From positions 27 through 64,026 of the forward strand of contig JAZDNF010000017.1 in assembly GCA_043800255.1 (NCBI GenBank): 64,000 nucleotides of DNA. The letters run 5' to 3'. The notes under the pieces were generated by a model. The model saw only the letters and a program-made list of their open reading frames with translations. It made no database searches and was not told the origin of the DNA. Source of the DNA: Candidatus Altiarchaeota archaeon (GTDB taxonomy: Archaea > Altiarchaeota > Altiarchaeia > IMC4 > SCGC-AAA252-I15). Below are positions 4,601-63,978 of this stretch, one piece after another. The translations under genes and the position numbers were made by a program. The number at the start of each line of letters is the position of its first letter. Within the stretch, counting starts at the first letter, position 1.

Positions 4601-6581
4601 CTGGGGAGGTCAGATCTTCTGAGAAATCGCTCACAGAACCAGAACAAGTCCCGTCTGACCCGCACGTCTGACAGGCACCATTACAGTGCGCAGAAGATAC
4701 TTTCTCATAACAGTTTTTCGCATGATAACTGCAAGTTGGAAGCTGATCATAACACTCACTATCCCTACCAGAACCACACTGCCAACTACCATCACAACAA
4801 ACCTGCGTCCCAGAAAGAGAACCCTCATAAACATTCGCATTCGTATCAGCACAATCATAAACATCCAAAGAACTATCATTGTCATCGTCAGTGTCCGTAT
4901 TGTCACAAGTTCCATCACTATCAGTATCAGGCGAATCTATTACATTGAACCAGATAGGATTTGTATATGTTCTATTATTATTTGTCGTATCAAGACATGT
5001 CAATCTGTAATATCCATCTCCAGTCGGTGTGTCCGTCCAAGTATAAGAACCAGAGCCAGAAACCCAACCATAATCCTTTTCCGTACTCTCTGATGAGCCG
5101 CCGATATAACCCTTAACTATATGTAGGTCGCAGGAATTGACAACACTATAATAGGTATCTATTGTTATCTCCGAACCTGAACAAACATCTATCTCTCCTC
5201 CAGGATACTCATCTGCAGTATGGCTTGGACTTGAAATATAGAAAAGAGCATACCCTCCATCATTTGAAATAAAACAACGACCATTCTCTAAAGATGATTT
5301 TAATTCATCCTCAGTAAAAGAGCTTAGATAACATCCAAGATAAACAAATTTATCTTCACCAAATAATTTTTCATGAAAAAGAGCTGCATTCTCACTATCG
5401 CTACCGGAGAATCCATAAATTTTTTCCCCATCTAATAATTCATCAATCCAATAATCTATTGTATCTTGATCTTTACTATCAAATTCACCATTCCAGATTT
5501 CGAGGCCTGTATAATCTGAAACGCATGATAAACTTGCCCAGTCCCACTCAGAATTAAAAGGATGATTGATTATAGCAAGTCCCTCATTGTTGTTAGCATC
5601 GTCAATACCATCTTGAGAATCGGGTTCATCAGGACATCTACCCGTACTACCAGTAAAACAATCATGTTTGGTATATCCTACAAATGAACTTATTCCATGA
5701 GCATTCATATGACCTGCATCAGCAGAACCACAAACCGTACAATCTGTAGGTCCTTTACAACACCAATTCTCATTATCAGTTTCAGAAGGGCAACTTTCAT
5801 CGACTGATAATTCTTCACTATGAAGTATCAAAAAAGACGAACTATCTGCATTGTGACAATCATTTTTAAAATTATTCCAAATTGTACTAGTCATGCAATA
5901 GCTATGGTCTGTTATTGAAATCCAATTTAAACCTGAAGTTATGGCTTCATCTCGCCTATCTGCTACAGTGCCAACCCCATTATATATTGAGGCATCACAA
6001 TTCGTATAATTCGTGTGGATATGTAGATCACCATATTTCCAACCACCTGAAGCAGAAATCTGTTTAGAGTGAGTATATTCTTTTTCCGAAATTGTCTGCT
6101 CAAATTTAGGATATATACTAAAACTAGAATTAAGTAAAACTTTTTCCCCCTGATTGTCTTTTATGTAATTTATGAGTACAGATATGTTAATTGTCTTTCC
6201 TATATTGAGTTGAGGTTTATCTATCTCAGATAAGTTTATGTAATATGTCCGTGAGAACACATTTTTGAATTCTGCATAAGAACTACAGGTATTGTTATTA
6301 GATTCTTGTAATTGAGGACTATTAGAAATGTTTACTATTGTATCTAAATCCTCCTTAATCATATTAATGTCATCAAAGGAGATACTAATGTTCTCAATAA
6401 AGAGTTCAGATGTTCCATTGTTTATTATTGTTAGATAAATTGGGAGCCGTCCTAGATTTCTCGCTTGATGTAGATTACTTACGCTAAAAATAATATTATC
6501 ATATTCAATCTCCTGAGCAGAAACAGTTAAGATTAGTATGCTTAAACATAACAACGAAAAAAAGAATATCTTCGTTGTCAT
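1641..6581 (-). CDS. Large secreted multidomain protein: PHP-family (CehA/McbA-like) metallohydrolase, Cys-rich/TSP3-like Ca-binding repeats, Ig-like/FN3 domains
   Basis: Start reassigned to MTTKIFFFSLL (signal peptide; ATGA overlap with upstream stop); GDLHIHT, ITDHS, INHPF, GLEIWNG motifs; DTDSDGTCDNTDTDDDND repeats; repeated GxHTWxVNCTD Ig-like units; ends GWNLISFPLE. Confidence 0.75.
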   Translation of the reverse strand: MTTKIFFFSLLCLSILILTVSAQEIEYDNIIFSVSNLHQARNLGRLPIYLTIINNGTSELFIENISISFDDINMIKEDLDTIVNISNSPQLQESNNNTCSSYAEFKNVFSRTYYINLSEIDKPQLNIGKTINISVLINYIKDNQGEKVLLNSSFSIYPKFEQTISEKEYTHSKQISASGGWKYGDLHIHTNYTNCDASIYNGVGTVADRRDEAITSGLNWISITDHSYCMTSTIWNNFKNDCHNADSSSFLILHSEELSVDESCPSETDNENWCCKGPTDCTVCGSADAGHMNAHGISSFVGYTKHDCFTGSTGRCPDEPDSQDGIDDANNNEGLAIINHPFNSEWDWASLSCVSDYTGLEIWNGEFDSKDQDTIDYWIDELLDGEKIYGFSGSDSENAALFHEKLFGEDKFVYLGCYLSSFTEDELKSSLENGRCFISNDGGYALFYISSPSHTADEYPGGEIDVCSGSEITIDTYYSVVNSCDLHIVKGYIGGSSESTEKDYGWVSGSGSYTWTDTPTGDGYYRLTCLDTTNNNRTYTNPIWFNVIDSPDTDSDGTCDNTDTDDDNDSSLDVYDCADTNANVYEGSLSGTQVCCDGSWQCGSGRDSECYDQLPTCSYHAKNCYEKVSSAHCNGACQTCGSDGTCSGSVSDFSEDLTSPGYCFTQQVCYGGSCLTDTDDDYVPNTVDKDDDDDSICDYAGGGSYDTCSGNEETSSCDTNADCDYDGSTDNYDCWDTDITKEEVTKYGTQICCNGALKCTSSRSTECYVDSLMACTNHAENCAEYGITTQCTTACRTCGTDRRCSLNIIDGTDDSTSPGTCTSYNVCYYGTCYSDNDEDNIPNFLDLQVATNTPNNNTWDTDGSVQFNFTSTSAQQSTFACYLLVDGIVVQTKTGVANNTQTVFAQNLSEGTHTWNVNCTDGTANWDTDDNNRIIKIDTRPPTLSLGYPANGDYYTSSTVVFNYTAQDTVDSTVNCNLYFDGALYQTRAVNNGTDSLSKTSVADGNHTWYVNCTDDAGWSNQSTTWLIKLDANPPNITLNWPPNDIWYNNNTILFNYTVSDTIGPIINCSMALNGTQNQTTQALANNSNIGYLLSNLPEGPIYWNITCTDDATNTGNQQRIIKVDTVAPERPTEFDAWFNSDGTITLNWTNSESDDVISYHIHYSNSTAFNFRTVNANLTNSTNGWTDSTASSSPTRYYLVRSNDRAQNTDNNTYVIGKIGTLSLNSGWNIITPTHNRAEDALDQISGCTRIAEYINNGTTTGFLTHNQNTPLFNFTINPGKSYYVYCENNATIPVLAGSLASITSDVYAGWNLIGWTSFSNTTAQQLIENITNAAAVGQYVYTGQQSSPMFIPPAFTSITATSTSSNNDTTFQVHVDGSAENNFTIAAGKGYFVYLMNTSNWTVGGPYTTTTTINILPTVTLNSPADNYNSSGIFTFNFIAYDDVSMQLNCSLYINNTINQTRTVANNTWTNITLVFQDCGSHTWSIRCSDTDGGENSSETRTITAAVSYSFPSFPQAYLGYAIIDGSPIGGATITADAVTSNYQQNVTSSNTTGIYTIDINFFWSCDLGQGMINGEQIRWYINGFLADSCGGVTPCTSTFRDGQVNSNFNISYTTQPAQSPQITSINEGISLIFGWNLISFPLE

Positions 6582-6895
6582 TTTATTTTGGTCCAGATAT
6601 AACCCATACACAAAGTTATAATTGCATAGTATATTGGTGATAATAGGTTGATATATGCCTTCACAAATTCTATTCTTTGATACGCATCCCATCCATAAAC
6701 AGAGCGAAAATAATCTACAAAATAATACAAAATTGCACTGGGAAACCAAATGATTTTTGCCCAAGGAGGGGCATATCTGATATCATTGAAGGTAAGTAAT
6801 AAATTTCCTATTAGTAATGCGCTAATGCCCCAAAACATACCCAATAATAACCAAAACCAAAAATTAATTTTTCCTTTCTTTCCCCCCATCTTCAC
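6578..6895 (-). CDS. Small membrane protein, hypothetical
   Basis: 105 aa, 2-3 hydrophobic helices, 4-nt overlaps with both neighbours. Confidence 0.65.
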   Translation of the reverse strand: MKMGGKKGKINFWFWLLLGMFWGISALLIGNLLLTFNDIRYAPPWAKIIWFPSAILYYFVDYFRSVYGWDAYQRIEFVKAYINLLSPIYYAIITLCMGYIWTKIK

Positions 6896-9363
6896 ATCAC
6901 CCTCTCAATATCACTTCCCATTATGCTGTATGACTCCAAGAGCTTATAACTGTTTCCTTGTTTTTGGATTACGACGACGTAGCCTGCTGAGGGCACACTC
7001 GTATAGTCGCCTTCTTGGATGAGGTTCATACCGGCCAGGTACCAGCCTTGGAGTATTGCCTTAGTGGATTGCATCTGTGTGTTGGAAATCTGCGTGCTAA
7101 ACTCTCTGGACTCGTTTTGCACGAACTCGCTCGCATCATCGATGAACTCGAAGATCTCCTCTTCACTGCTGTCCTCTGTTGGAATGTCCGCAGACCCTGC
7201 AAAACAGATGGAGTTCTTAATCACCCCTAAGACGCCCTTTACAGCCCTAAGCTGGCCAGTATACCAGACAATACCTGTTTCCGTCCCCTCCCCCTCTAAG
7301 CCAGCAATCATTGTCCTATAGAACCTGATTTTACCATCCTGCCACCGCTCATCTATAGTATCCTTTTTCCAGATTATCTCCTCAGGCAAAGCAGCGATAA
7401 CAGCCACATTAGAGTCAGTGTACTCTTTATCCCCAACTAGCACAGTCCCATAGGATTTACGCTCAAAATGAGGCAAACCCAGCGTCCTCAAATCATCATT
7501 AATCTTCACAGAGAGACTGTTAACAGACGGCCCCCCAACAGAGATAGTGAACGCTCCGAGAGTGCTCAACTCCGCATCAGACTGGTGCTGCGTGTAATTG
7601 TGAGTGTCAATATTCAGCAAATACTTTGTGAGATCATTCCTTAATTCAGCAGGAACATTTTTTATCAACTTACAGTAGGATGCCGCCAACTCAGGCTGCC
7701 CGAACAGATTCGCCAACAAAGGAGTTAAAGTATCACCGATGTTCTCAGCAATGTCCAACTCCATCTTCTCCATCTCAAAACTAACTCTCGGATCGATCTC
7801 CTGAGCATCGCTCCCAGTAATATGAAGAGAAGAATAGTAGCCTCTGTTGACAAAATTTTCTATTCTAGAAGTCAGCTGATCTTCCAGACGATTAAGGTCT
7901 TCAACAGTTTTAGTAATGCCGTTAACCGTCTCCTCCACACTCACATCAGCCCACAATCCATTCTCATCTATCCTGTAGACTAGAACATAGTAGTAATCCG
8001 TATACGACCCATAGAATAGTTTAATAGGCACCCTCAAACCAACTGGCAAATCATACCTTAACTCTCCAGCAGGATTTCTCTTATACTTGAAGTAAGCGAA
8101 GGTTCCTAGACTAGTATCCCGTGTAAAAGGCTTCAAATAGCCTACCACAGAGCCGTTAACTGCTATCTGATCCTCAGTACCATATTCGAGGAACCTCGCA
8201 CTCGATGGAATGTAGATTGTCGTCGTTGTAGGAATAGACGTTGAGACTGAAGGAATAGTGGAGGAGGGGATAGGTAATATGCCCGACGTGTTAACTGTCA
8301 TATACGCGCCCGTATCCCTGATAGAATATACGGTAACCCTGAGGTAGACGTTCTCCAAGCCGAAGGGGAGAGGATACGTCTTACCCTCAGACAAGGGTAT
8401 TAGTGGATAGGTAGTGCCCTCTGGAAAACCATAACGTCTGTATTTCAGATAAGTGCTAATTCCAAGCGCAGTAGTCTTCTGATAAGGTTCAACATAACCC
8501 GACTCCAAACCAGAGATATAGATTTTACCCTGAACACCATATTGGTAAAATTTCGCATCAGACGGCAAGGTAGATGTCGTAGGGACTGAAGTTGTTACCG
8601 TTGTTGTAGGGATTATCTGACTGGTATCAACATGCATGTACACTCCATCCTCTCTGACAAAATAAACCTCGACTTTCAGGTAAATGTTCGCCAAACCAAA
8701 AGGCAAAAGCAGTGTAACTCCCTCCTTCAAGGGGATAGGATAAGTGTTACCCTCAGGATAGCCTTCCCTTTTATATTTCAGATAAGCGTATGTGCCCAAT
8801 GCCCCGCTCTTCTGATACGGTTGAATGTAACCCACATTCTGACCGGAAACATGAATATAACCTACAGCATCATACTCGTAGAATTTCGCATCAGACGGCA
8901 ACGTAGTAGTAACCTTAACAGTGGACGTAGACCTCACGGTCGTGGTCTGAACGCTTGATGTCTGCCTGACACTAGTCGTGGGCGCAACAGTAGTTGTCAC
9001 ACGGACCGTAGTTGAAACGATCGTCGTTGGAATAATCTGTGAAGTATCAACATCCATGTCAACCCCGTTTGCCTGAATACTGTTAACCTTGACTGTCAAG
9101 TAGACATTCGCAAGACCGAAGGGCAGAGGATACGTAATACCCTCAGAAATGGGAGCAGGATACATATTACCCTCAGGATAGCCATAACGCTTCCACTTCA
9201 GATATGCGTAAGTGCCGAGAATTCCTGATTGCTGATACGGTTTTATGTAGCCCAGTTCCTGACCAGACACCATTATCGGTGCCTGAACATCGTACTGATA
9301 GAATGTAGCTGAAGCTGCTGGTAAAAACGACACGCAAAGGAGAAATACAAAAATCTTTCTCAT
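6892..9363 (-). CDS. Secreted protein with four tandem ~95-aa repeats, Thr-rich linkers and an S-layer-like C-terminal domain
   Basis: Signal peptide MRKIFVFLLCVSFLPAASA; repeated FY(Q/E)Y...GY(I/V)xPY...LGTYAYLK...LPFGL units; ISVGGPSVN and IAGLEGEGT resemble archaeal S-layer C-terminal motifs. Confidence 0.7.
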   Translation of the reverse strand: MRKIFVFLLCVSFLPAASATFYQYDVQAPIMVSGQELGYIKPYQQSGILGTYAYLKWKRYGYPEGNMYPAPISEGITYPLPFGLANVYLTVKVNSIQANGVDMDVDTSQIIPTTIVSTTVRVTTTVAPTTSVRQTSSVQTTTVRSTSTVKVTTTLPSDAKFYEYDAVGYIHVSGQNVGYIQPYQKSGALGTYAYLKYKREGYPEGNTYPIPLKEGVTLLLPFGLANIYLKVEVYFVREDGVYMHVDTSQIIPTTTVTTSVPTTSTLPSDAKFYQYGVQGKIYISGLESGYVEPYQKTTALGISTYLKYRRYGFPEGTTYPLIPLSEGKTYPLPFGLENVYLRVTVYSIRDTGAYMTVNTSGILPIPSSTIPSVSTSIPTTTTIYIPSSARFLEYGTEDQIAVNGSVVGYLKPFTRDTSLGTFAYFKYKRNPAGELRYDLPVGLRVPIKLFYGSYTDYYYVLVYRIDENGLWADVSVEETVNGITKTVEDLNRLEDQLTSRIENFVNRGYYSSLHITGSDAQEIDPRVSFEMEKMELDIAENIGDTLTPLLANLFGQPELAASYCKLIKNVPAELRNDLTKYLLNIDTHNYTQHQSDAELSTLGAFTISVGGPSVNSLSVKINDDLRTLGLPHFERKSYGTVLVGDKEYTDSNVAVIAALPEEIIWKKDTIDERWQDGKIRFYRTMIAGLEGEGTETGIVWYTGQLRAVKGVLGVIKNSICFAGSADIPTEDSSEEEIFEFIDDASEFVQNESREFSTQISNTQMQSTKAILQGWYLAGMNLIQEGDYTSVPSAGYVVVIQKQGNSYKLLESYSIMGSDIERVM

Positions 9364-9576
9364 CAGCCCCACCGTTTAATTCATTGTTTTTGGGTTTAAA
9401 TATGGAATTCAGCGGTTGTGCATTTTTGCCGTTGAAGTTTGGGGTTTAGCAGCCGCTTCCAGATTGGGGTGAATCTGACCTTCTTGTTTTTTATCTGCTC
9501 CACACCCTCATAATCGTGTGTTATGTAGGGAAACATGTTTATAAATCTTTCCCTGTGTTGGGAACTTAATTTTTGA

Positions 9577-9719
9577 CGTCAAGAACTGTTGGCCACGGGC
9601 TGGCGGAAATCTTAGATGTCAAGAACCGCCGGTCAGAGACCGGCGGCATGGATTACACCGGATAGGTTCTTGACAGATGATTTCCACCCACCAGTCACAG
9701 ACTGGTGGAAATCTTAGAT
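9577..9719. repeat. Nested palindromic REP/PATE-like element, copy 1
   Basis: TGTCAAGAACC...GGTTCTTGACA inverted repeat (9617-9675) enclosing CCGCCGGTC-AGA-GACCGGCGG; second hairpin CCACCAGTC-ACA-GACTGGTGG; CTGG(C/T)GGAAATCTTAGAT repeated at 9600 and 9702; homologous to 62413-62522. Confidence 0.75.
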
Positions 9720-9758
9720 TTATAAGTGTGACCAGCATATAACTTAAAGAGGTTAGAA

Positions 9759-9932
9759 ATGGCTCGTCCGATTGACTGTTCTCCGGATTTGAACAATAAG
9801 GAAAGCATGCGTTTCGTGAAGGAATTGATCAGGGTAGAATCTCTTCCGAAAGACAGCAGGGAGTATCTTGAGCGCAGGAAATTTTTAGAGGAGTGCGAAC
9901 TCAAGGCTGAGAAGGTCAGATGGGTATTCTAG
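9759..9932 (+). CDS. 57-aa protein, putative antitoxin of the adjacent GNAT
   Basis: Manual translation MARPIDCSPDLNNKESMRFVKELIRVESLPKDSREYLERRKFLEECELKAEKVRWVF; GAGG RBS and TTTATAAG TATA-like box upstream; below the ORF-track cutoff. Confidence 0.55.
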   Translation: MARPIDCSPDLNNKESMRFVKELIRVESLPKDSREYLERRKFLEECELKAEKVRWVF

Positions 9933-10444
9933 AACTCCCCCAACAAGTCAAGATACATTTCGACGTTCTTACCCCGCCTCTTTAACTCCTTGAAACCGTT
10001 CTTCCTGTAAAATTCGACCACATGAGGGTACGAGTGCACGACAACAAAACGGCATTCTATTTTCTTGGAGATTTTCCTGGCGAGGCCCAGTATAACACCA
10101 ATCATCTCCGTCCCGACATGATGACCCCTGTACCTTTTGTCCACCCCAAAACGTGCAATCAATATGGCCGGGAAAAGACCGTATCTTTTGCCTCTTTCCT
10201 CCAGTTTTTTCACAGCATCTCTGCCGGGTTTTATGGCAAACATGCCCCAACAAAAGAAGCCAATCGGGACCTTTTTGTATAGGAACAGATATGTCGTCGA
10301 TATTTTAGCCTGTGTATGACCTACCGCATCCTCTTTTAAGAATTCATTCAAGTCCTTGTCTCCGCAGTCAAAATCCTTAACACGCCCAATATTTCCATCA
10401 GTGAGCTTTACTACCCGGGCCTTACTTAAGACAAGTTCCACCAT
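9929..10444 (-). CDS. GNAT acetyltransferase, TacT/AtaT-like toxin type
   Basis: FDCGDKDLNEFL, PAILIARFGVDKRYRG and FYRKNGF motifs. Confidence 0.85.
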   Translation of the reverse strand: MVELVLSKARVVKLTDGNIGRVKDFDCGDKDLNEFLKEDAVGHTQAKISTTYLFLYKKVPIGFFCWGMFAIKPGRDAVKKLEERGKRYGLFPAILIARFGVDKRYRGHHVGTEMIGVILGLARKISKKIECRFVVVHSYPHVVEFYRKNGFKELKRRGKNVEMYLDLLGEF

Positions 10445-24834: not shown

Positions 24835-25356
24835 TTACAGAGATTGCTTCTCTATGGCGTCAATGAGAGTTAGAAGGCCTTTCAGTATTTCCTTTGGTTT
24901 TGGAGGATTTCCTGGAATCTTGAAATCCACGGGCAGCACCCTGTCGGCGCCTCCGGCGACCGCGTATGAGTCCCTGAAAACTCCGCCGTTGCATGCGTCG
25001 TCTCCCACTGCCACGACGAATTTGGGGCGTGGCATAGCCTCATAAGTCTTCCTCGCCGCAGACTCCATGTTGAGGGTCACGGCGCCCGTGACCACGAGTA
25101 CGTCCGCATGTCGTGGGGAGGCTACGAAAGTTATTCCGAACCTTTCGATGTCGTAGTACGGTGTGGTGAGGTTGACTAGCTCTATCTCGGCGGAGTTGTC
25201 GCTGCCGGTGTCCAGTTCCCTGATTGCGAGGCTTCTGCCGAATACTTTATCGACTTTCTCCTTCAGCCTCAACCCAACCTCCTCGAACTCTCCGTCCTTG
25301 AACAGTATGTCCTCTGTCACGGCCGGTTTCAGTATGTTAGCCAGTGGATTTGCCAT
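24835..25356 (-). CDS. Ehr/hydrogenase-4 small subunit homologue (NuoB/HycG family) lacking canonical Fe-S cysteines
   Basis: YDIERFGITFVASPRHADVLVVTG family signature; GSDNSAEIE, GDDAC and PGNPP at the Cys-motif positions; GAGGTGA RBS. Confidence 0.9.
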   Translation of the reverse strand: MANPLANILKPAVTEDILFKDGEFEEVGLRLKEKVDKVFGRSLAIRELDTGSDNSAEIELVNLTTPYYDIERFGITFVASPRHADVLVVTGAVTLNMESAARKTYEAMPRPKFVVAVGDDACNGGVFRDSYAVAGGADRVLPVDFKIPGNPPKPKEILKGLLTLIDAIEKQSL

Positions 25357-25366
25357 CTCATTCACC

Positions 25367-26938
25367 TCAGAGGTCGCACCCCGCATACGACAGGTTCATG
25401 CTCTTGTTGATGAGGGGGAAGTCCGGGATTATGTTGCCCATCACCGCATGCTCTATCGCCTGCCAGTTGCAGAATGACGCAGTCCTCACTTTATACCTAT
25501 CGACGAGGCCGCCGCTTACCGAAACCCAGTGGACACTCTGGCCGCGTGGTGCCTCGACAATGGAGAGCGCATGACCGTCTTTTACATCGCACTCCGCGTT
25601 TATTTCGCCGTCTGGCATCTGCTTCAATATCTTGTGTATGATAGTTACGGAGTCGTGTATCTCCTGCGCCTTCAGGTTGAAGCGTGCCATCACGTCCCCC
25701 GTCTCGCAGACGCGGACGTGGTGAGAGAGCCTCTCGTATATGCCATACGGGTGGTCGGTTCTCGTGTCCATGCATCCGCCGGATGCTCTTGCTATGGGTC
25801 CGCTCAGGTTTAGTGGTGCGATGAGCTCTTTCCTCACGACGCCAGTCCTCTCGAACCGGTCAATGACCGACGGCGATGAGAGGATGTGTTCAGTAGCATC
25901 TTTGAACCCTTCCGTAAATCCTTCGAGGTAATGTGACAGCGCAGAGAATCGGCCGCGTTCTATGTCCTTCTGGAGTCCTCCTATGCCTATGATTCCGCGC
26001 ATAAACCTCGAGCCAGTTAGTGCGTCGTTCTGCCGTAGTATCTCCTCCCTGAGCATGAAGTAGGGGCTTGCACCTGCAGGGTATGCGACATCCACAACCA
26101 TCCCAGCCAGGTCTCCAAGGTGCGAGTATATCCGCTCCATCTCCAAAAGGAGGGTGCGCAGGTAGCAAGCCCTTGCGGGAACGGAAATGCCCGAAATCTT
26201 CTCGACACAGTTGCAGAAGCAGACCGCATTAGCCACGGTCTCGTCACCGCTTATGGACTCCGCGATGGGGAGAACATCCTCTGGCGCTCTTCCTTCAGAG
26301 AGTTTCTCGACACCCCGGTGCTTGTAGAACATCCTCACTTCGAGGTTGTATATGTTCTCGCCTATGACGCTGAAACGGAAGTGCCCCGGCTCTATTATGC
26401 CAGCGTGAACTGGCCCGACAGGTATCTGGTAAACCTCCTCCCCACTCACATCCTTGAACCTGTATTCTTCCTCAGGGGATATGTGTGTCTTCGCCCGTAT
26501 CCTCTGGTTCCTAAACGACTTGAGCAGCGGGTGGAACCCATCTGGATACGCCTCATGGAGGAAAAGCCTCCTCTCCTCGAATGCGCCTTCGAACTCTATG
26601 CCGAATCCGTCGCGTATCTCCCGCTCGTACCAGCAGGCAGTCGGGTAAGACTCTTCGATCGAAGTCGCCTTTGCATCGTCTAGTTGCCTCTCAATCACCA
26701 GGATTTCCCGCTCACCCCGTTTTTCAAATGCGTAGAGGAGGGTGAAACCCTTCCTGTCGTTGAAGCATTCCACGCAGAACAGGCTTATTAGATTGTAACC
26801 TGCATTGGAGAGCGAGGGTATTACGTCATGAAAGCCTTCCTCGCTGACTGTTGCATATACCTCGTTGTTGCATCCCAGTCTAATGCTGCATTTTTTGCCG
26901 CCGCACAGCCCAGTGAACTCATCAGATAGTCCGCTCAT
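25367..26938 (-). CDS. Ehr large subunit (NuoC/NuoD-fused, HycE-like) without NiFe-binding motifs
   Basis: WYEREIRDGFG, VGPVHAGIIEPGHFRF, EAPRG, DFPLINKSMNLSYAGCDL; start MSGLS overlaps upstream stop. Confidence 0.92.
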   Translation of the reverse strand: MSGLSDEFTGLCGGKKCSIRLGCNNEVYATVSEEGFHDVIPSLSNAGYNLISLFCVECFNDRKGFTLLYAFEKRGEREILVIERQLDDAKATSIEESYPTACWYEREIRDGFGIEFEGAFEERRLFLHEAYPDGFHPLLKSFRNQRIRAKTHISPEEEYRFKDVSGEEVYQIPVGPVHAGIIEPGHFRFSVIGENIYNLEVRMFYKHRGVEKLSEGRAPEDVLPIAESISGDETVANAVCFCNCVEKISGISVPARACYLRTLLLEMERIYSHLGDLAGMVVDVAYPAGASPYFMLREEILRQNDALTGSRFMRGIIGIGGLQKDIERGRFSALSHYLEGFTEGFKDATEHILSSPSVIDRFERTGVVRKELIAPLNLSGPIARASGGCMDTRTDHPYGIYERLSHHVRVCETGDVMARFNLKAQEIHDSVTIIHKILKQMPDGEINAECDVKDGHALSIVEAPRGQSVHWVSVSGGLVDRYKVRTASFCNWQAIEHAVMGNIIPDFPLINKSMNLSYAGCDL

Positions 26939-28404
26939 ATTCCCAGCCTCAACTCGTGTATTATCGCATTTAGCGTCAAATCCAATCTCTGCGGGAAGAA
27001 CAATCCGATGGCGGTGATGGCCAGTATTAGCACCACAATGGGGATCTTCATGTCCCAACCGGGTTCATACGCCCTCATGTGCGCCGCCTCCCCGTGAGCG
27101 CCGACGCGCGAGAACAGGGTTACAAGGTACGATGCCATCGCAGCAGAAGCCACAAGTAGCAGGAGGAGTACGCTGAACATCAGCATCGCGGACAAGCCAC
27201 CGACCTGAAGTAGTATGAATATCTTGGAGGTGAAGATGGGGAATGGCGGCATACCCACTATCGCCATACCACCGATTATAAGCCCGGCAGACGCCATCGG
27301 CTGCAGCCGCAGCACGTCCTTCATGTTCTCGGCCTTGTTGCTGTGGTACTGCCTGTGGAGTATCCCAGACGACAGGAACAGGAGGGTCTTGATTAGCGAG
27401 TGCGCGAGCACGTGGTATAGTACCCAGAATATCGCAGCCGGTGTGCCGACACCGATACCTATCAATGCGATGCCCATGTGCTCGATGCTGGAGAACGCTA
27501 TCATCTTCTTCAGGTTCTTCTGCTTCAGCATCGTGAACGCTGCAATACCAACGCTTAAGATGCCAAACGCTATGAGCATGTGAGACGCCTCTGCCGCAGC
27601 CTGTGTTCTCGCAGCAATCGCCTGCATCCGTATTATTCCATAAACTCCAACATTCAGGAGGACTCCGGAGAGAATCGCGCTGACCGCAGATGGCGCCTTT
27701 GCATGGGCATGAGGTAGCCATGTATGGAATGGGACGATACCGGATTTTGCCGCAAATCCGATGAACACCAGCATGAACGTCGTCATAAACAGATTTGGCT
27801 TGAATTTAGGCGCGTTCTCAAGGAGGACTGTCCAGTTGAGGGTCCCAGCGCCTAGGATCTGCTGGGAGAGCGCGAAGAGGAGTACAAGGCCGATGAACGT
27901 GAAAAGCATCGAAACCGACGTGACGAAGATGTACCTCAGCGATGCTTCCATGTTCTTCTTGGTGCTCAGGATGGCTATCAGTATCGCGGAGAAGAATGTC
28001 GTCAGCTCGGCGAATATCCAGAAGAGGGCGAGGTTGTCAGCGAAGAACGACAATACCGTCACCGCAAGGAGGACATTGAAAGAGAGGTAGAAGAACAGTA
28101 GGTACTCCCTCTTCAGCTCCCCGTCGTTTATAAGACTCTCAACGTAACCACCCGCATAGATGGCAGCCATTAGGAACACGGCTGCGGTAATGGCTATTTC
28201 GTAGACTCCGAGGTGGTCTATGAAGAAGTAGCCCCCAACAGGATACTCCACCGGAAGGCTCGCCAATGAGAGCATATAGACGGCCAACCCCAGGTAGGCT
28301 GTTGCATGAAGGATAGAGACCGTCTGCATCCTCCGGTGGGAACCTGCGATGAGCAGGAGCATGAATGCCACCAAAGCCGTGACAACGAAAGCGATGAGCG
28401 CCAT
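26935..28404 (-). CDS. Hydrogenase-4 component F-like antiporter subunit (NuoL/M/N family)
   Basis: ELTT, KSGIVPFHTWLPHAHAKAP, AFSSIEHMG, HSLIK. Confidence 0.9.
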   Translation of the reverse strand: MALIAFVVTALVAFMLLLIAGSHRRMQTVSILHATAYLGLAVYMLSLASLPVEYPVGGYFFIDHLGVYEIAITAAVFLMAAIYAGGYVESLINDGELKREYLLFFYLSFNVLLAVTVLSFFADNLALFWIFAELTTFFSAILIAILSTKKNMEASLRYIFVTSVSMLFTFIGLVLLFALSQQILGAGTLNWTVLLENAPKFKPNLFMTTFMLVFIGFAAKSGIVPFHTWLPHAHAKAPSAVSAILSGVLLNVGVYGIIRMQAIAARTQAAAEASHMLIAFGILSVGIAAFTMLKQKNLKKMIAFSSIEHMGIALIGIGVGTPAAIFWVLYHVLAHSLIKTLLFLSSGILHRQYHSNKAENMKDVLRLQPMASAGLIIGGMAIVGMPPFPIFTSKIFILLQVGGLSAMLMFSVLLLLLVASAAMASYLVTLFSRVGAHGEAAHMRAYEPGWDMKIPIVVLILAITAIGLFFPQRLDLTLNAIIHELRLGI

Positions 28405-28405
28405 G

Positions 28406-29086
28406 TCAGTCCTCCTCCCTCTTGACATGCAATCGGGCAAGCCTGTTCTGGAATTCCTCTATACTCCCATCTATCCCAGTGGACAGTATCGTGGCAATAA
28501 GCACCAATATTATGAGATCCACTATTATCAGCACCTCTATGATGAACGGCAGCTCGGTCATGAAGATTCCGAACAAAAGCACCCCGTTCTCCATCGTGAG
28601 GTAACCGATAACTTTGGTTATGACCTTTCTGCGGGTCAGTATCACGAGCATCCCCATCAAAGCCAACGATATCCCGAAAACGGAACCCATGTAGGTGAGG
28701 CCGCTGAGCGAAAGCTCACGCAGGAACCCAGAGAACGAGTAGTAGACCAGCAGTATCATCGCTATTGTGGCCAGCATGGAGCCAGACGGGGAGAGGTAGG
28801 CGAACTCAAGGTCGCGGCGTATGTTCATCCTCTTCTGCACACTCTTCACGGCGTACGGTATGACGACGACCTTGCTCATAAAAGTCAGGGCCGCAAGGTA
28901 GATGAGGACATCGCTCGCGTGAACGCCATACAAGACCAGTGCAAGGACTGTCAAAAGGATAGATTGGATACGATAGGTCAAAACGAGCGACAGTAGGTCC
29001 CTCCTTGTGACTATGAATGCTCCGGTTATCAGCACAAGCGCAAGGAGCGCTTTGATCAAACCCGCCAAGAACAGCGTGTCAATCAC
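28406..29086 (-). CDS. Hydrogenase-4 component E-like membrane subunit
   Basis: YRIQS, KVVVIP, IGYLTMENG motifs; operon context. Confidence 0.88.
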   Translation of the reverse strand: MIDTLFLAGLIKALLALVLITGAFIVTRRDLLSLVLTYRIQSILLTVLALVLYGVHASDVLIYLAALTFMSKVVVIPYAVKSVQKRMNIRRDLEFAYLSPSGSMLATIAMILLVYYSFSGFLRELSLSGLTYMGSVFGISLALMGMLVILTRRKVITKVIGYLTMENGVLLFGIFMTELPFIIEVLIIVDLIILVLIATILSTGIDGSIEEFQNRLARLHVKREED

Positions 29087-30024
29087 CTAAACACCTCCAA
29101 AAGCAGGGTAATCGCTGAGAGGAAGAACGCAATCATGAACATGTTAGGCAGGTTGAACAGCCTCATCTTTGCTATCGATGACTCGAACAAACCGATGACA
29201 ACTGCAAGGAACACGGCCTTCACGAAGAACGCCACCAAACCGACAACAACAGCCGATAACACCATCTGAGTCGCAACACCCCAGGGTATGAGGACGTTAA
29301 TGAGTAGCCCCATCAGGAGCGTCTGCTTGATCGCCGCGGAAAGCTCCATCAAGGCGAGGTCACGGCCGCTGTACTCCAAGAGCATGGCCTCATGCACCAT
29401 CGTCAGCTCCAGATGTGTCTCTGGGTTGTCGACTGGAATCCTCGCTGTCTCGACTATGAGAACGATGAAGAGGGGTAGGGCTATGAGCACCAGCGCTGGA
29501 TCTGGGATGAATGCCGAGCCAGCGGCCTGCCTGAACATTTCATGGAAGTTGAGGGTCTTGAAGGTATAGAAGAGCGCAGCGAACACCACGACTGTGATGG
29601 GCTCTATCACAGAGGATATGCTCATCTCCCTAGAGCTTCCCATGCCACCGAATGTGCTTCCCGCATCCAAGCCGGCGAGCGCCATGAAGAATCTTGCAAG
29701 CGCCAGAAGGTAAAGGAACAATATGACGTTCCCTACATCCAACGCCGGGTTAGGTATGAATGCCAATGGGATGCACAATGCGGCAGTCACCATGACGGCC
29801 ATATTCACATACGGCGTCACCCGCATAATCTGCGACGAATTCGATGAGTAGACAGTCTCCTTCATCATCAGCTTCGCAAGGTTATAGTAGGACTGCAAAA
29901 GCGGCGGACCCCTTCTCCTCTGCACCGCAGCCTTCACCTTCTTGATGATGCCAGTGAACAGCGGGGATATCACGAGTGCGAACGCGACATTCACGAACCC
30001 GAAAACCACATATTCGGTGTTCAT
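29083..30024 (-). CDS. Hydrogenase-4 component C / NuoH-like membrane subunit
   Basis: QRRRGPPLLQ, FGGMGSSRE, RIPVDNPETHLELTMVHEAM. Confidence 0.9.
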   Translation of the reverse strand: MNTEYVVFGFVNVAFALVISPLFTGIIKKVKAAVQRRRGPPLLQSYYNLAKLMMKETVYSSNSSQIMRVTPYVNMAVMVTAALCIPLAFIPNPALDVGNVILFLYLLALARFFMALAGLDAGSTFGGMGSSREMSISSVIEPITVVVFAALFYTFKTLNFHEMFRQAAGSAFIPDPALVLIALPLFIVLIVETARIPVDNPETHLELTMVHEAMLLEYSGRDLALMELSAAIKQTLLMGLLINVLIPWGVATQMVLSAVVVGLVAFFVKAVFLAVVIGLFESSIAKMRLFNLPNMFMIAFFLSAITLLLEVFR

Positions 30025-31967
30025 ATTAACCACCCTACCGCGACAAGCAGCGCCAACACTGCGACGAAAACGTAGGATATGTAAGTGTCAAGGTGACCAT
30101 TTTGTAGCTTCGCAACTGATGATGCAACCCAGTCAATAAAGCTCGCAATCGGCATGTAGATGTACTGCTCAAAAAACTTCATCAGGTGGATCTCCGCATA
30201 GCCTTCCTTGAAGACGCTGCCATATCTGTCGTAGAACCTCCTTTCCCCATCTTCCCGGGTTCTGTAAACGAACTTGAACATCCTCATAATCGGCTCAGAA
30301 AAACCGGAGGCAGTATACTCCATCCTACTATTCTGGGAGACGATACCACATCCCCACGTCTCAGACATCCTGGACTTCCTCGAGGCACCAAAGTAAACAG
30401 CGAAAAAAACAGCTCCACAGGCAGCAACCAAAACCGAACTAACCACGATCATGTCAGGAAGAGGCGAAACATAGCCTAGACCCGCCATAATCCTTGTCGA
30501 GAAGACACCGAGGAAGACGCATGCGGCCGCGAGGACGGCCGGACCGACAAGCATCGAAAGCCCGGACTCACTAGCCTTTCTCGCCCCATCAGACCGCGGA
30601 ACAGCCAGAAACGTTATCCCAAACGCCTTAACAAAGCATGCCGATGCGAACGCACTGGTGAGCGCGAGAATCGACAGGCAGAGTATGAGAAAAACTTGGA
30701 GCAACGGCTCAGCAACGAAGTAAGATTGAAGCAACGCAGTGAAAATCATCAACTCGCTAACGAACCCGTTGAACGGCGGCAATGCTGAAATAGAAATCGC
30801 GCCCACGAGAAACAGAAGCGCAGTGTAAGGCATCCGCTTCAATAATCCACCTAAGACCTCGATGTCTCTCGTCCCAACCGCGTTCACAACTGACCCAGCG
30901 GCCATGAACAGAAGACTCTTGAATAGGCCGTGATTGAACGTGTGAAATAACGCACCATAGAGGCTCAGACGCGCAAGCTCTGCGAGGTTTTCGCCGCGGA
31001 ATATGACGAAGAGGCCCAGACCGATGTATATGATGCCTATGTTCTCTATGCTATGATATGCGAGGAGGCGCTTGATGTCGTGCTCCTTCAGCGCGTAGAG
31101 GACGCCGAGTATCGCAGACAAGGTTCCGAAGGCAACTATGATGACACCCCATCCGACCCCCACGTTCGCCGCATCATAGAGTATGAACCTCACGAAACCG
31201 TATACTGCGACCTTGAGCATCACACCTGACATCAGCGCTGAGATGTTCGAGGGGCTTGCGGGGTGAGCGTATGGAAGCCATTTATGGAACGGAATCAGAC
31301 CCGCCTTTATACCGAACCCCATGAACAGGCACGCCATTACTGCAAGGGATGTGGCACCACCAACGCCCGCAAGCCGCATGTCAAATGTACCGCTGGCTTG
31401 ATGCATCATCAGGAACGCCGCGAAAAGGAATACAGCACTCAGCTGTGTCATGATGAAATAGAATATTCCCGCCTTCCTGCTCTCCTCCTTTTCAAAGTCA
31501 TACAACACCATGAAGAACGACGACAATGACATAAGTTCCCAGAAGAACAGGAACGAGAAAGTATTAGTTGATGAGACCACAAGCACCATCGACAAGATGA
31601 AGACGCCCATCAGAGCGACAAGAAGGCTCTTCCTGACATCATGCTTCTCATGTTCCACATAGCCGACCGAGTAGATGCAGACGGCAATGGATACTGTGGA
31701 AATCAGAAGAGTGAAGAATGCTGACAGCCTGTCAAGCGCGAACGAGAAGCCAACGGAGGGGTTGACCCAGTAGGTGGCTGAAACAATGGTTTTACCTGTG
31801 TAGGCAATCTCCAAAGAGACCGCGAAAAGGAGAATTGAAGCCAATATCAGGCAGAGGAGCGACAACCTCCTTGCAGCCTTACCGCCGCGGAATACCGCCA
31901 GAGACAAGATCGAACCTAAAAAGAACAGGATAATGCTGCCGTAGAATAAATCAGGAGAATCCATCAT
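30021..31967 (-). CDS. Hydrogenase-4 component B-like antiporter subunit
   Basis: FWELMSL, KAGLIPFHKWLPYAHP, LAYHSIEN, LPPFNGFVSE, WGCG. Confidence 0.9.
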   Translation of the reverse strand: MMDSPDLFYGSIILFFLGSILSLAVFRGGKAARRLSLLCLILASILLFAVSLEIAYTGKTIVSATYWVNPSVGFSFALDRLSAFFTLLISTVSIAVCIYSVGYVEHEKHDVRKSLLVALMGVFILSMVLVVSSTNTFSFLFFWELMSLSSFFMVLYDFEKEESRKAGIFYFIMTQLSAVFLFAAFLMMHQASGTFDMRLAGVGGATSLAVMACLFMGFGIKAGLIPFHKWLPYAHPASPSNISALMSGVMLKVAVYGFVRFILYDAANVGVGWGVIIVAFGTLSAILGVLYALKEHDIKRLLAYHSIENIGIIYIGLGLFVIFRGENLAELARLSLYGALFHTFNHGLFKSLLFMAAGSVVNAVGTRDIEVLGGLLKRMPYTALLFLVGAISISALPPFNGFVSELMIFTALLQSYFVAEPLLQVFLILCLSILALTSAFASACFVKAFGITFLAVPRSDGARKASESGLSMLVGPAVLAAACVFLGVFSTRIMAGLGYVSPLPDMIVVSSVLVAACGAVFFAVYFGASRKSRMSETWGCGIVSQNSRMEYTASGFSEPIMRMFKFVYRTREDGERRFYDRYGSVFKEGYAEIHLMKFFEQYIYMPIASFIDWVASSVAKLQNGHLDTYISYVFVAVLALLVAVGWLI

Positions 31968-32729: not shown

Positions 32730-32894
32730 GCGGGGGTGCTGGAGTGGTCAAACAGGCAGGGCTTAGGAGAACCCTTTTCTTTCTTAGGAAGAAAGAAAAG
32801 CGTTCGCGGAAAAGAAAGAACAATTAATCCGTGAACAGGGTTTGAAGTTACCCTGTGGCGCAGGCCTACGCGAGTTCGAACCTCGTCCCCCGCA
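32730..32894 (+). tRNA. tRNA-Leu(TAG) with 82-nt intron at position 37/38 (intron 32768-32849)
   Basis: Acceptor GCGGGGG/CCCCCGC+A; anticodon stem CAGGG/CCCTG with CT-TAG-G|A; long variable arm; GTTCGAAC T-loop; bulge-helix-bulge geometry at the junctions. Confidence 0.92.
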
Positions 32895-33082
32895 ACCTTT
32901 CCCACAGAAGGCATCGCCTTCTGGGGCCCCAGAAAGCAAAGCTTTCTGTGGGTCTTTCTAAGAAAAGGTTGATCAAAAGAAGAATACATTAGTGACATTC
33001 AAAGGGAAGGGTAGGGTTGATAAGGGCGGGAAACCGCAGGTTTCCTGCACTTATATTCGGACACTCGTCCCCCGCAACCTTT
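32882..33082. mobile_element. Miniature hairpin-rich insertion at the tRNA-Leu 3' end with 19-bp direct repeat
   Basis: CTCGTCCCCCGCAACCTTT at 32882-32900 and 33064-33082; interior carries AAAAGGTTGATCAAAA and several GC-rich hairpins. Confidence 0.7.
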
Positions 33083-63862: not shown

Positions 63863-63978
63863 TGTCAACAGCGTCCCGGGGTTCCCGCATGTTATGCAGT
63901 ACCGCCCGGATCGCTGGAGGTCTTAACTTCTGTGTTCGGGATGAGAACAGGTGTTTCCCCTCCGCTGTGACCGTTGAC
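63863..63978 (-). rRNA. rrf: 5S ribosomal RNA
   Basis: Minus strand GTCAACGGTCACAGCGG...CATCCCGAACACAGAAGTTAAG...GCTGTTGAC; conserved CCGAAC and GAAGTTAAG; helix I GTCAAC/GTTGAC. Confidence 0.93.

Follow-up and report, generated by a model that had tools for sequence, protein, structure and literature searches.

EhrS, an Ehr small subunit without Fe-S ligands, is probably part of a machine that moves ions without carrying electrons

What can a relative of complex I do once its small subunit has lost every cysteine that holds the Fe-S cluster? The question is raised by EhrS, a 173-aa protein of the NuoB fold encoded on the minus strand (24835–25356) of the 64,000-nucleotide stretch of DNA analysed here, which is probably from an Altiarchaeota archaeon and is called hereafter the window. 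Its coding sequence runs from an ATG at 25356, preceded by a Shine-Dalgarno-like GGTGA box, to a TAA stop at 24835–24837. A longer frame opening at 25386 probably has a false start, since the Met at 25356 is also the first residue of database protein P0001. Profile searches placed EhrS in the NuoB/HycG family (PF01058, Oxidored_q6, 97.8 bits for a cut-off of 27; NF005012, 130.3 bits for a cut-off of 116), yet it lacks the four cysteines that ligate the proximal, or N2, [4Fe-4S] cluster. The first two are replaced in the motif GSDNSAEIE (codons of Asp53-Asn54-Ser55-Ala56, 25189–25200, minus strand), Cys1 by Asp53 (GAC, 25198–25200) and Cys2 by Ala56 (GCC, 25189–25191). The third has become Asp120 (GAC, 24997–24999), within Asp119-Asp120-Ala121-Cys122 (24991–25002, minus strand), and the fourth Asn150 (AAT, 24907–24909, minus strand), within IPGNPP. 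Each replacing codon is two bases away from TGY, so that none can be explained by a one-base error. In phmmer alignments with chains of solved structure, the four residues sit opposite the cluster cysteines of HycG (7z0s_G, 5.9e-31), MbhJ (6cfw_J, 7.6e-31) and bovine PSST (5lc5_B), and alignment with HyfI and NuoB of E. coli K-12 was concordant. Cys122 (TGC, 24991–24993) is the sole cysteine of the protein. The first-pass annotation of this DNA had claimed the replacement of the four cysteines by D, A, D and N, with one non-canonical cysteine left; codons and alignments agree with it on both points.

The large subunit, EhrL (523 aa, 25367–26938, minus strand), is a fusion of NuoC-like and NuoD/HycE-like parts (PF00329, PF00346, PF00374) and matches HycE (7z0s_E) at 6.2e-70. 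It starts at the ATG at 26938, which overlaps the stop of the upstream gene as ATGA; the ORF listed from a TTG at 27058 is probably too long. As had also been claimed, EhrL lacks both NiFe motifs, RxCGxCxxxH and DPCxxCxxH/R, and thus the four NiFe-ligating cysteines of group 4 hydrogenases. Alignment with HycE and HyfG placed SISGDE (26240–26257, minus strand) at the N-terminal motif RxCGxC (Arg to Ser, Cys to Ser, Cys to Glu), and the C-terminal NLSYAGCDL (25370–25396, minus strand) at DPCxxC (Cys to Ser, Cys to Gly). When 79 large-subunit rows were compared, xxSGDx was found in 75, two others having intact NiFe motifs and two being gapped there, and most carried N(L)SY(S/A)G at the C-terminus. 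The cysteine one residue past NLSYAG is unconserved, being N or T in other members of the clade described below. Three N-terminal cysteines of the EhrL ORF (C12, C17 and C23), considered as an alternative Fe-S motif, are not conserved either. A Gly occupies the position aligned with E. coli NuoCD Tyr273, which we take to be the number of the quinone-site Tyr of NuoD. With a Gly here, and without the NiFe cysteines, no electron acceptor site is evident in EhrL.

The two genes belong to an operon of six, all on the minus strand and with intact frames, of which ehrS is the last. Judged from its gene content and motifs, it is of a known type, Ehr (energy-converting-hydrogenase-related): it is a six-subunit cluster of the group-4-hydrogenase type with a large subunit devoid of NiFe motifs. 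Published descriptions, as far as their text is accessible, give this name to two operons, GSU0739-45 of Geobacter sulfurreducens (EhrA-1, EhrC, EhrL, EhrS) and Mhun_1817-1822 of Methanospirillum hungatei, named ehrABCDLS in print. Like the window, these have six genes, encoding NuoL-, NuoH-, HyfE- and NuoM/N-like proteins together with a large and a small subunit, and their large subunit is without NiFe cysteines. According to the accessible part of Anderson et al. 2009, Mhun_1817-1822 has homologues in Methanosarcina, in operons of M. acetivorans and M. mazei, and Methanosarcina operons of this type have been published as ones that “may not encode hydrogenases”. The same partial view of the literature on Ehr gives the function of the complex as unknown.

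Redox cofactors were also sought beyond the two subunits. When all 64 kb of the window were searched by tblastn with HyfH and NuoI of E. coli (E <= 0.01), no ferredoxin subunit of this type came to light, nor did NuoA, NuoI or NuoJ have a match there, and the ORFs neighbouring the ehr operon include no Fe-S family. Across the six to seven clade members compared, none of the six Ehr subunits has a conserved cluster of cysteines to hold another Fe-S centre, and no conserved cluster of Cys or His was found in any of them. The first-pass annotation had described an operon without a ferredoxin-like subunit and with no evident redox cofactor. The tblastn search upholds the first statement, and the second is a fair reading of the sequence, because the ligands are lost, the ferredoxin-like subunit is missing and no other Cys cluster takes their place.

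Could Ehr still be an oxidoreductase, with an unconventional centre built on Cys122 and the Asp and Asn residues, or with one completed by a partner encoded elsewhere, from which electrons would go on to the site in EhrL? Cys122 is present in 119 of 120 EhrS homologues, and 41 of them have a second Cys two residues further on. Aspartate can ligate [4Fe-4S] clusters in some ferredoxins, and reduced ferredoxin would be available, since the genome encodes a separate group-3-type NiFe hydrogenase and Rnf. Published annotation, in its accessible part, also treats the ehr cluster as ferredoxin-reducing: Gunsalus et al. 2016 assume that the one of M. hungatei “likely” reduces ferredoxin, an assumption that counts against the ion translocator proposed below. 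However, half of the homologues (60/120) have one Cys in the entire protein, and position 56, that of the second ligand, varies freely (T49, P31, A28, V10). Given in addition the missing ferredoxin-like input module in the window, the want of any conserved Cys/His cluster and the state of EhrL, we consider this explanation improbable.

Alternatively, EhrS might be what is left of a membrane hydrogenase, in decay or without function. Every cofactor ligand is indeed lost, and the gene is patchily distributed among relatives: an orthologue was found in 6 of the 40 searched, and genome G004 carries one further EhrS fragment with an in-frame TGA. But the replacement residues are nearly invariant across Archaea and Bacteria. 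Among the 120 homologues, whose median pairwise identity is 68%, Asn54 and Ala121 are found in all, Asp53 and Asn150 in 119 each, and Asp119 and Asp120 in 118 each. The D/x/D/N form was also found in all of 11 further orthologues (5/5 from relatives, 6/6 from the genomes of the Methanosarcina-type genus of L004, every one of which keeps EhrS), and the pattern lies far above chance expectation. The dN/dS ratio of EhrS, obtainable only from the measurable pairs as dS is saturated in most, was 0.04 for L003-L004 and 0.12–0.13 for window-L087 and L086-L087. Together with the near-invariant replacements, these low ratios indicate that the ligand loss is not decay, and by sequence comparison the entire operon is under purifying selection. 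With six intact frames and, as described below, the transport residues kept, the remnant hypothesis is scarcely credible. An intact EhrS frame that is not decaying at random had been claimed at the outset; the ratios and the counts of 118–119 out of 120 concur.

One check put forward was whether proteins with the Cys-less pattern form a conserved clade that purifying selection maintains, and tree, residue counts and dN/dS answer that they do. On a tree of the large subunit, the D/x/D/N form makes up a single well-supported clade, comprising Altiarchaeota relatives, Methanosarcina, Methanomicrobiales and Dehalococcoidia; loci from Methanosarcina and Methanomicrobiales thus lie in the clade of the window, which speaks indirectly for its orthology with the named operons. 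Members of that clade have lost the NiFe site, the ligands of the proximal [4Fe-4S] cluster and the ferredoxin-like part, be it a domain or a subunit. Most other Ehr small subunits differ from it in this respect: 52 of the 79 Ehr rows compared keep all four cysteines (CCCC), and some have a fused ferredoxin-like domain as well. Firmicutes Ehr small subunits have a fused domain with two CxxCxxCxxxC motifs, a sister pair (L010/L069) has a four-Cys ferredoxin-like domain in addition to CCCC, and proteobacterial loci have CCCC only, whereas in the D/x/D/N clade and the candidate-phyla-radiation (CPR) loci none or one of the four small-subunit cysteines is left. Fe-S centres thus seem to have been stripped stepwise within the Ehr family, which we count in favour of the ion-translocator reading.

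Some Ehr lineages outside the D/x/D/N clade are also without Fe-S ligands. A CPR-specific Ehr clade has been described whose large subunit lacks metal-binding cysteines (Jaffe et al. 2020, BMC Biol, PMC7304191). Like that of the window, the small subunit encoded at the CPR loci is without three or four of the Fe-S cysteines (TCDD, SEGD, TEGD and similar), but the replacement residues are different, the gene order is I-B-C-(E)-F-G instead of B-C-E-F-G-I, and on the large-subunit tree the loci fall into starred clades of their own, apart from that of the window. Of the 27 rows that are not CCCC, 23 are acidic at two, and only two, of the four former Cys positions, a charge pattern that we also count in favour of the ion-translocator reading. 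The unconstrained large-subunit tree needs three to four changes of Cys state. However, a tree uniting all 24 Cys-less rows was not rejected (AU p = 0.16), and independent losses of the cluster are therefore not claimed.

What the operon has retained is its membrane arm, which by alignment still has the Lys/Glu chain by which complex I, Mrp and MBH move ions. EhrA (648 aa, 30021–31967, minus strand) is a HyfB-like antiporter-like subunit (PF00361 8.5e-57, PF00662; NF006418, “hydrogenase membrane subunit”, 855 bits, above cut-off). Opposite E144, K229, H334, H338 and K342 of E. coli NuoL its residues are unchanged, and at the position of K399 it has a Glu, as does E. coli HyfB. EhrB (316 aa, 29083–30033, minus strand; PF00146 7e-40), of NuoH-HyfC type, retains the acidic loop PxDxPExxxEL...EYSG and the membrane Glu common to E. 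coli NuoH and HyfC. EhrC (226 aa, 28406–29086, minus strand) is HyfE-like, its match to NF008556, the “hydrogenase 4 membrane subunit” profile, being under the cut-off (1.2e-17); its C-terminal half aligns with E. coli NuoK, and its membrane motifs MENG and IIEV are common to HyfE and the clade. EhrD, a HyfF-like antiporter-like subunit (ORF of 501 aa, 26935–28440, minus strand, with a probable start at the ATG at 28404; PF00361 1.7e-51; NF006427, 609 bits, above cut-off), retains the TM5 Glu, TM7 Lys and TM12 Lys. The Glu and Lys residues of EhrA and EhrD stand at the positions of NuoL E144/K229/K399, NuoM E144/K234/K265/E407 and NuoN E133/K217/K395, a numbering of the E. coli transport residues that we take as correct, the residue identities having been confirmed on the K-12 sequence. 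Both subunits therefore have the marks of the MrpA/D type (TM5 Glu, TM7 Lys, TM12 Lys/Glu). The gene order B-C-E-F-G-I is common to the window, loci L001-L008 and the Cys-keeping Ehr loci.

Comparison with known machines delimits what has been kept. The best solved-structure matches of EhrS and EhrL are HycG and HycE (7z0s) of the E. coli hydrogenase-4/formate hydrogenlyase group, and the HyfBCEFGI part of that system has the same membrane subunit types and transport residues as the window Ehr. Hyf and Hyc, however, have a NiFe site, a proximal cluster, the ferredoxin subunit HyfH/HycF and a formate dehydrogenase partner, and the window Ehr has none of these. MBH and MBS of Pyrococcus furiosus (6cfw, 6u8y) likewise set an MbhJ/L-like peripheral module on NuoH-like and Mrp-like subunits. 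In MBS the NiFe site is reportedly lost and the machine still works; but MBH and MBS differ from the window Ehr in having three [4Fe-4S] clusters, a redox drive and a full Mrp-type Na+ module. The Mrp antiporter resembles the window Ehr in its two MrpA/D-type PF00361 subunits with Glu and Lys, its NuoK-like element and its want of a redox cofactor, but it is without NuoH-, NuoB- and NuoD-like subunits. As for complex I/NDH-1, its quinone-site Tyr and its NuoA, NuoI and NuoJ are all missing from the window.

EhrS is thus, on sequence grounds, probably part of a machine that moves ions without carrying electrons. In the form that we favour, with a probability of about one half, EhrS would sit in a redox-inert, six-subunit secondary ion translocator in which the cap and a charged pocket are retained. 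The complex would perform no redox chemistry and would most likely act as Mrp does, exchanging cations for protons and so interconverting H+ and Na+ gradients. The EhrL-EhrS cap would have been retained to close and shape the NuoH-like half-channel. The former cluster pocket, with its two carboxylates and one amide, might hold a hard cation, or its fixed negative charge might replace that of [Fe4S4(Cys)4]2-, locking the coupling site in one electrostatic state. The gradients would be made by Rnf, an H+/Na+-PPase (a membrane pyrophosphatase) and an A-type ATPase, all encoded in this genome (1.75 Mb, 93% complete), the ATPase on a different contig from the ehr operon. EhrA and EhrD are the only two PF00361 proteins of the genome, which thus yielded neither an Mrp nor a complex I besides the ehr operon. 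On the other side, two PF00999 Na+/H+ exchangers are present, and the need for an extra antiporter is therefore not obvious. A broader version, which we hold only tentatively, is that the core job of Ehr never needed electron transfer: Fe-S centres would have been stripped from 3 to 2, 1 and 0, the carboxylates replacing the -2 charge or holding a cation, and the D/x/D/N clade would be a “redox-dead complex I”, with the complete coupling architecture of the complex-I type but working as a pure ion-gradient converter.

The near-invariance of the large-subunit motifs also counts against the ion translocator: SGD and SY(S/A)G (75/79 rows) resemble a working ligand or catalytic site rather than a passive cap. 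They would fit a chemically driven or ligand-gated pump, the idea of the first-pass annotation. In such a pump a substrate, or a metal without a redox role, would be bound by SGDE/SYAG and the Asp/Asp/Asn(+Cys) set, and its binding or non-redox turnover, instead of electron transfer, would drive or gate the movement of ions. The small-subunit replacements, kept at D53, D120, N150 and C122 in 118–119 of 120 homologues, are equally typical of a working site, and both former metal sites have been refilled with Ser, Asp, Glu and Asn, with no hydrophobic filler. Such a pump is nevertheless rather unlikely, as no candidate ligand emerged and no conserved neighbour gene indicates a substrate. None of the neighbours of the window operon recurs at other Ehr loci, the flanking ORFs being common to close relatives only (L003/L004, L006/L008), and the 112-aa and 67-aa ORFs downstream of it match no Pfam family. 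Searches for riboswitches and other regulatory RNAs came up empty in the window, in the 1.3 kb preceding the operon, and at 8 loci of the clade and 7 of neighbouring Ehr clades. The structure model does not help either: the AlphaFold2 model of EhrS (32-sequence alignment) has a mean pLDDT of 64, falling below 50 at the former cluster loops (residues 52–67 and 122–127), and yields no usable pocket. Foldseek matched this low-confidence model to the expected NuoB/MbhJ chains only (including PSST), the best being MbhJ (TM 0.54/0.63).

That the complex serves in the response to stress by fluoride, or by some other anion, is very unlikely. No fluoride riboswitch was detected in the 64-kb window at the Rfam gathering score, in the 1.3 kb ahead of the operon at E <= 5, or at the 8 D/x/D/N-clade loci and the 7 loci of neighbouring Ehr clades. 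The repeat-bearing region upstream of the operon has no tRNA. No RNA sequencing run is listed as containing the stretch; one groundwater-metagenome DNA run contains 0.29 of the sampled words from it.

The Cys-less EhrS is no isolated oddity: it is conserved in many anaerobes, within a known operon class. The literature on Ehr, in its accessible parts, reports loss of the NiFe site only, and what is seen here beyond it is the loss of the small-subunit Fe-S ligands in the D/x/D/N clade; no mention of such a loss was found in those parts, Marreiros et al. 2013, Coppi 2005 and supplements lying outside them, nor was a transport assay for any Ehr complex. Names in use for these small subunits include “Ni,Fe-hydrogenase III small subunit”, “membrane-bound hydrogenase subunit mbhJ”, “formate hydrogenlyase” and “NADH-quinone oxidoreductase subunit B”. 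As the sequences of the clade have no place for Ni or Fe-S, turnover of H2 or ferredoxin inferred from the presence of ehr is probably wrong, an annotation issue that touches Altiarchaeota, DPANN archaea, methanogens and Dehalococcoidia. For complex I, the central open question is by what means redox events at the NuoB/NuoD/NuoH junction power antiporter modules that lie far from it, and a conserved relative with an intact junction and no redox centre is a natural control for this coupling. Since the clade has members in the genetically tractable Methanosarcina, it would, if the redox-dead reading is true, allow direct experiments on how the junction of the peripheral arm with NuoH drives the antiporter modules.

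The window operon, judged by its cluster type and by its loss of NiFe motifs, is an Ehr complex. It consists of six closely spaced ORFs on the minus strand (31967–24835), whose subunit types were assigned with Pfam and NCBIfam: a HyfB/NuoL-like subunit (30021–31967), a NuoH/HyfC-like subunit (29083–30033), a HyfE-like subunit (28406–29086), a HyfF/NuoM-N-like subunit (26935–28440), a large subunit of fused NuoC and NuoD/HycE-like type (mechanical ORF 25367–27058) and a NuoB/HycG-like small subunit, EhrS (24835–25356). For the large subunit the most likely start is ATG 26938, overlapping the stop of the preceding gene as ATGA, rather than TTG 27058, 40 codons further upstream; the extra N-terminal cysteines of its ORF are either in this unlikely extension or not conserved. 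The small subunit starts, as the first-pass annotation had it, at ATG 25356, with a GGTGA box in front. Upstream of the operon, a gene-free stretch of about 750 nt contains the 16-nt word ggttgcgggggacgag twice (32882–32897 and 33064–33079, minus-strand reading, about 180 nt apart), each copy being followed by a GC-rich hairpin-like stretch. In this repeat region ARAGORN found no tRNA and Rfam nothing above chance. A 5S rRNA gene lies at the window end (63863–63978, minus strand, 77.7 bits).

The first-pass annotation had proposed that the four [4Fe-4S] cysteines of the small subunit are replaced, that a single non-canonical cysteine is left, that both NiFe CxxC motifs of the large subunit are gone and that the operon has no ferredoxin-like subunit. 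All of this was borne out. Among solved chains, phmmer matched the small subunit to HycG (7z0s_G, 5.9e-31), MbhJ (6cfw_J, 7.6e-31) and mitochondrial PSST chains, and in these alignments Asp53, Ala56, Asp120 and Asn150 stand opposite the cluster cysteines. E. coli HyfI and NuoB, whose sequences were derived by translating the K-12 record, gave the same pairing. Two substitutions separate each of the four codons (GAC, GCC, GAC and AAT) from TGY, and Cys122 is the sole cysteine of the protein. The large subunit has SISGDE aligned with RxCGxC and NLSYAG with DPCxxC; the cysteine that follows NLSYAG (AGCDL) is N or T in other clade members. A glycine is found where E. coli NuoCD has its quinone-site tyrosine (Tyr273). 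When E. coli HyfH, NuoI, NuoA and NuoJ were used as tblastn queries, no match was detected within the window, and the ORFs adjoining the operon belong to no Fe-S family. A hidden redox centre in the complex is improbable: inspection of the six subunits in 6–7 clade members revealed no conserved cysteine set able to hold another cluster.

In a word-indexed protein search, 7873 of the 8000 candidates scored reached E <= 1e-5. Conservation was counted on the best 120 of the 7873 (67–100% identity to the query, median pairwise identity 68%). In these, D53, N150 and C122 were each kept in 119 and D120 in 118, and D49, G51, S52, N54, E57 and E59 in all 120, while position 56 was variable (T49, P31, A28, V10). 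The dN/dS ratio (Nei-Gojobori) was 0.04 for the pair L003-L004 and 0.12–0.13 for the window-L087 and L086-L087 pairs; the other five pairs were saturated at synonymous sites. The earlier suggestion of a conserved clade under purifying selection, instead of random decay, is upheld by these counts (118–119 of 120) and ratios. This is a conserved clade and not a decaying one, and decay of the operon is a reading to which we give almost no credence.

To place the window protein in its family, the query and its best 150 matches in a library of 50%-identity representatives were inspected. All four cysteines were present in 99 of these 151 rows, one to three in 21 and none in 18, and 13 were gapped at a site. 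Scanning species-representative genomes gave matches to at least 597 stretches, and 80 loci were retained; both soluble subunits were readable in 78 (L040 and L049 have no large-subunit ORF), making 79 rows with the window. Of the 79 large subunits, 77 do not have all four NiFe cysteines, L061 and L066 alone having intact motifs, and xxSGDx was found in 75 (L006 and L074 are gapped there). Read as four-letter codes for the Fe-S ligand positions, the small subunits were CCCC in 52 rows, D[A/T/P]DN in nine and other in 18. The nine comprise the window, two Methanosarcina, one Methanosarcinales, one Methanomicrobiales, one Methanoregulaceae and three bacterial MAGs (Moduliflexus, Dehalococcoidales, Dehalogenimonas); the 18 come chiefly from candidate-phyla-radiation (CPR) bacteria, with TCDD, SEGD, TEGD and similar. 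In L006 and L008, from Methanomicrobiales/Methanoregulaceae MAGs, several operon genes (region 3300–10000) each come as two or three separate ORFs. Assembly frameshifts are a more probable cause than genuine breaks, given that both small subunits are intact and of D/x/D/N type.

A large-subunit tree was built from 73 rows, omitting frameshifted, truncated or double loci (L006, L008, L030, L035, L052, L074) and the too short L062. The seven D/x/D/N rows formed one clade (SH-aLRT 100), whose sister (support 80) was a pair of Cys-keeping loci, from Thermoproteota and Nitrososphaeraceae, and the CPR forms fell in two other starred clades. A tree joining all 24 Cys-less rows was not rejected (AU p = 0.16).

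In many Cys-keeping Ehr loci a HyfH/NuoI-like ferredoxin domain is fused to the N-terminus of the small subunit. Five Firmicutes-type loci (L026, L043, L045, L046, L072) have it complete, with two CxxCxxCxxxC motifs, whereas in Verrucomicrobia/Acidobacteria loci and in the sister pair it is shorter, ferredoxin-like and has 4–6 cysteines; this reduced form was noted in L010, L069 (the pair), L011, L014, L023, L024 and L027. Proteobacterial loci have the four NuoB-type cysteines only, and in the D/x/D/N proteins both the extra domain and the ligands are missing. Over the family the number of Fe-S centres therefore steps down from 3 through 2 and 1 to 0. In L019 the HyfH-like ORF is a separate gene. 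In L066, a Chloroflexota MAG locus, intact NiFe motifs (RICGAC/ELCYAC) lie in a large subunit upstream of 9599, and the small subunit (9599–10444) has E, C, E, D at the Fe-S positions and an N-terminal ferredoxin-like part; it would be unusual for a large subunit of hydrogenase type to be paired with a small subunit that lacks the proximal-cluster ligands.

Acidic residues occupy exactly two of the four ligand positions in 23 of the 27 non-CCCC rows, three in 3 and one in 1. Four thiolates around a [4Fe-4S]2+ core leave the cluster at -2 overall, and the carboxylates may retain this charge or hold a cation. The main alternative reading of the complex, in which transport is gated or driven by a ligand or metal bound at the conserved O-donor sites, draws on the strong conservation of those sites; we consider it possible, if rather unlikely. 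A fluoride-linked role is very unlikely.

The membrane arm looks functional from its residues. Both antiporter-like subunits have Glu/Lys at the positions of E. coli NuoL E144/K229/K342/K399 and opposite NuoM E144/K234/E407 and NuoN E133/K217/K395; in the NuoH-like subunit the acidic loop and EYSG motif are intact, and the HyfE-like subunit retains its two membrane glutamates. With no Ni, Fe-S, flavin or quinone site and an intact Lys/Glu chain, redox-free ion translocation is the simplest mechanism, and we put the probability that the complex is an ion translocator without redox drive at about 0.5. It would then be an exchanger of Mrp type that has kept its cap.

The genome of the window (1.75 Mb, 17 contigs, 93% complete) encodes a membrane pyrophosphatase, Rnf, an A-type ATPase on another contig than the operon, and two PF00999 exchangers; it gave no match to MCR, nor to PF00361 outside the operon. 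The exchanger would convert between the gradients made by Rnf, pyrophosphatase and ATPase. In Methanosarcina, Mrp has such a gradient-converting role. The only other PF01058 protein of the genome belongs to a four-gene cluster (C8:32507-36274; 319, 262, 254 and 425 aa) resembling a group-3 NiFe hydrogenase of the cytoplasmic kind.

A small-subunit orthologue (at least 64% identity) was found in 6 of 40 relatives and in 6/6 genomes of the genus of the Methanosarcina locus L004, and all 11 orthologues retrieved from both sets were D/x/D/N. Those of a same-family (G006) and a same-order (G026) relative are identical to proteins labelled Candidatus Altiarchaeota/Altiarchaeales, which makes it probable that the window comes from a member of that phylum. 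Another same-family relative has only a 72%-identical fragment (G004:C57:5534-5749, query residues 101–172) with one in-frame TGA; this could be the remains of a broken gene, or an artefact of the contig end. One groundwater-metagenome DNA run contains part of the stretch.

In the published text covered, such operons were described in M. hungatei, M. acetivorans and M. mazei as ones that 'may not encode hydrogenases' (Anderson et al. 2009), that of M. hungatei was named ehrABCDLS and assumed to reduce ferredoxin (Gunsalus et al. 2016), a CPR Ehr clade was defined by the large subunit only (Jaffe et al. 2020, PMC7304191), and other accounts call the function unknown. [quoted passage not shown] The variant represented by the window operon is real and conserved: a known orphan complex stripped of its cofactors, to which the window contributes a further member from a genome of Altiarchaeota type. 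The useful additions are an Asp/Asp/Asn(+Cys) signature that hardly varies, the stepwise disappearance of Fe-S centres over the family and the presence of the exact D/x/D/N form in tractable Methanosarcina.
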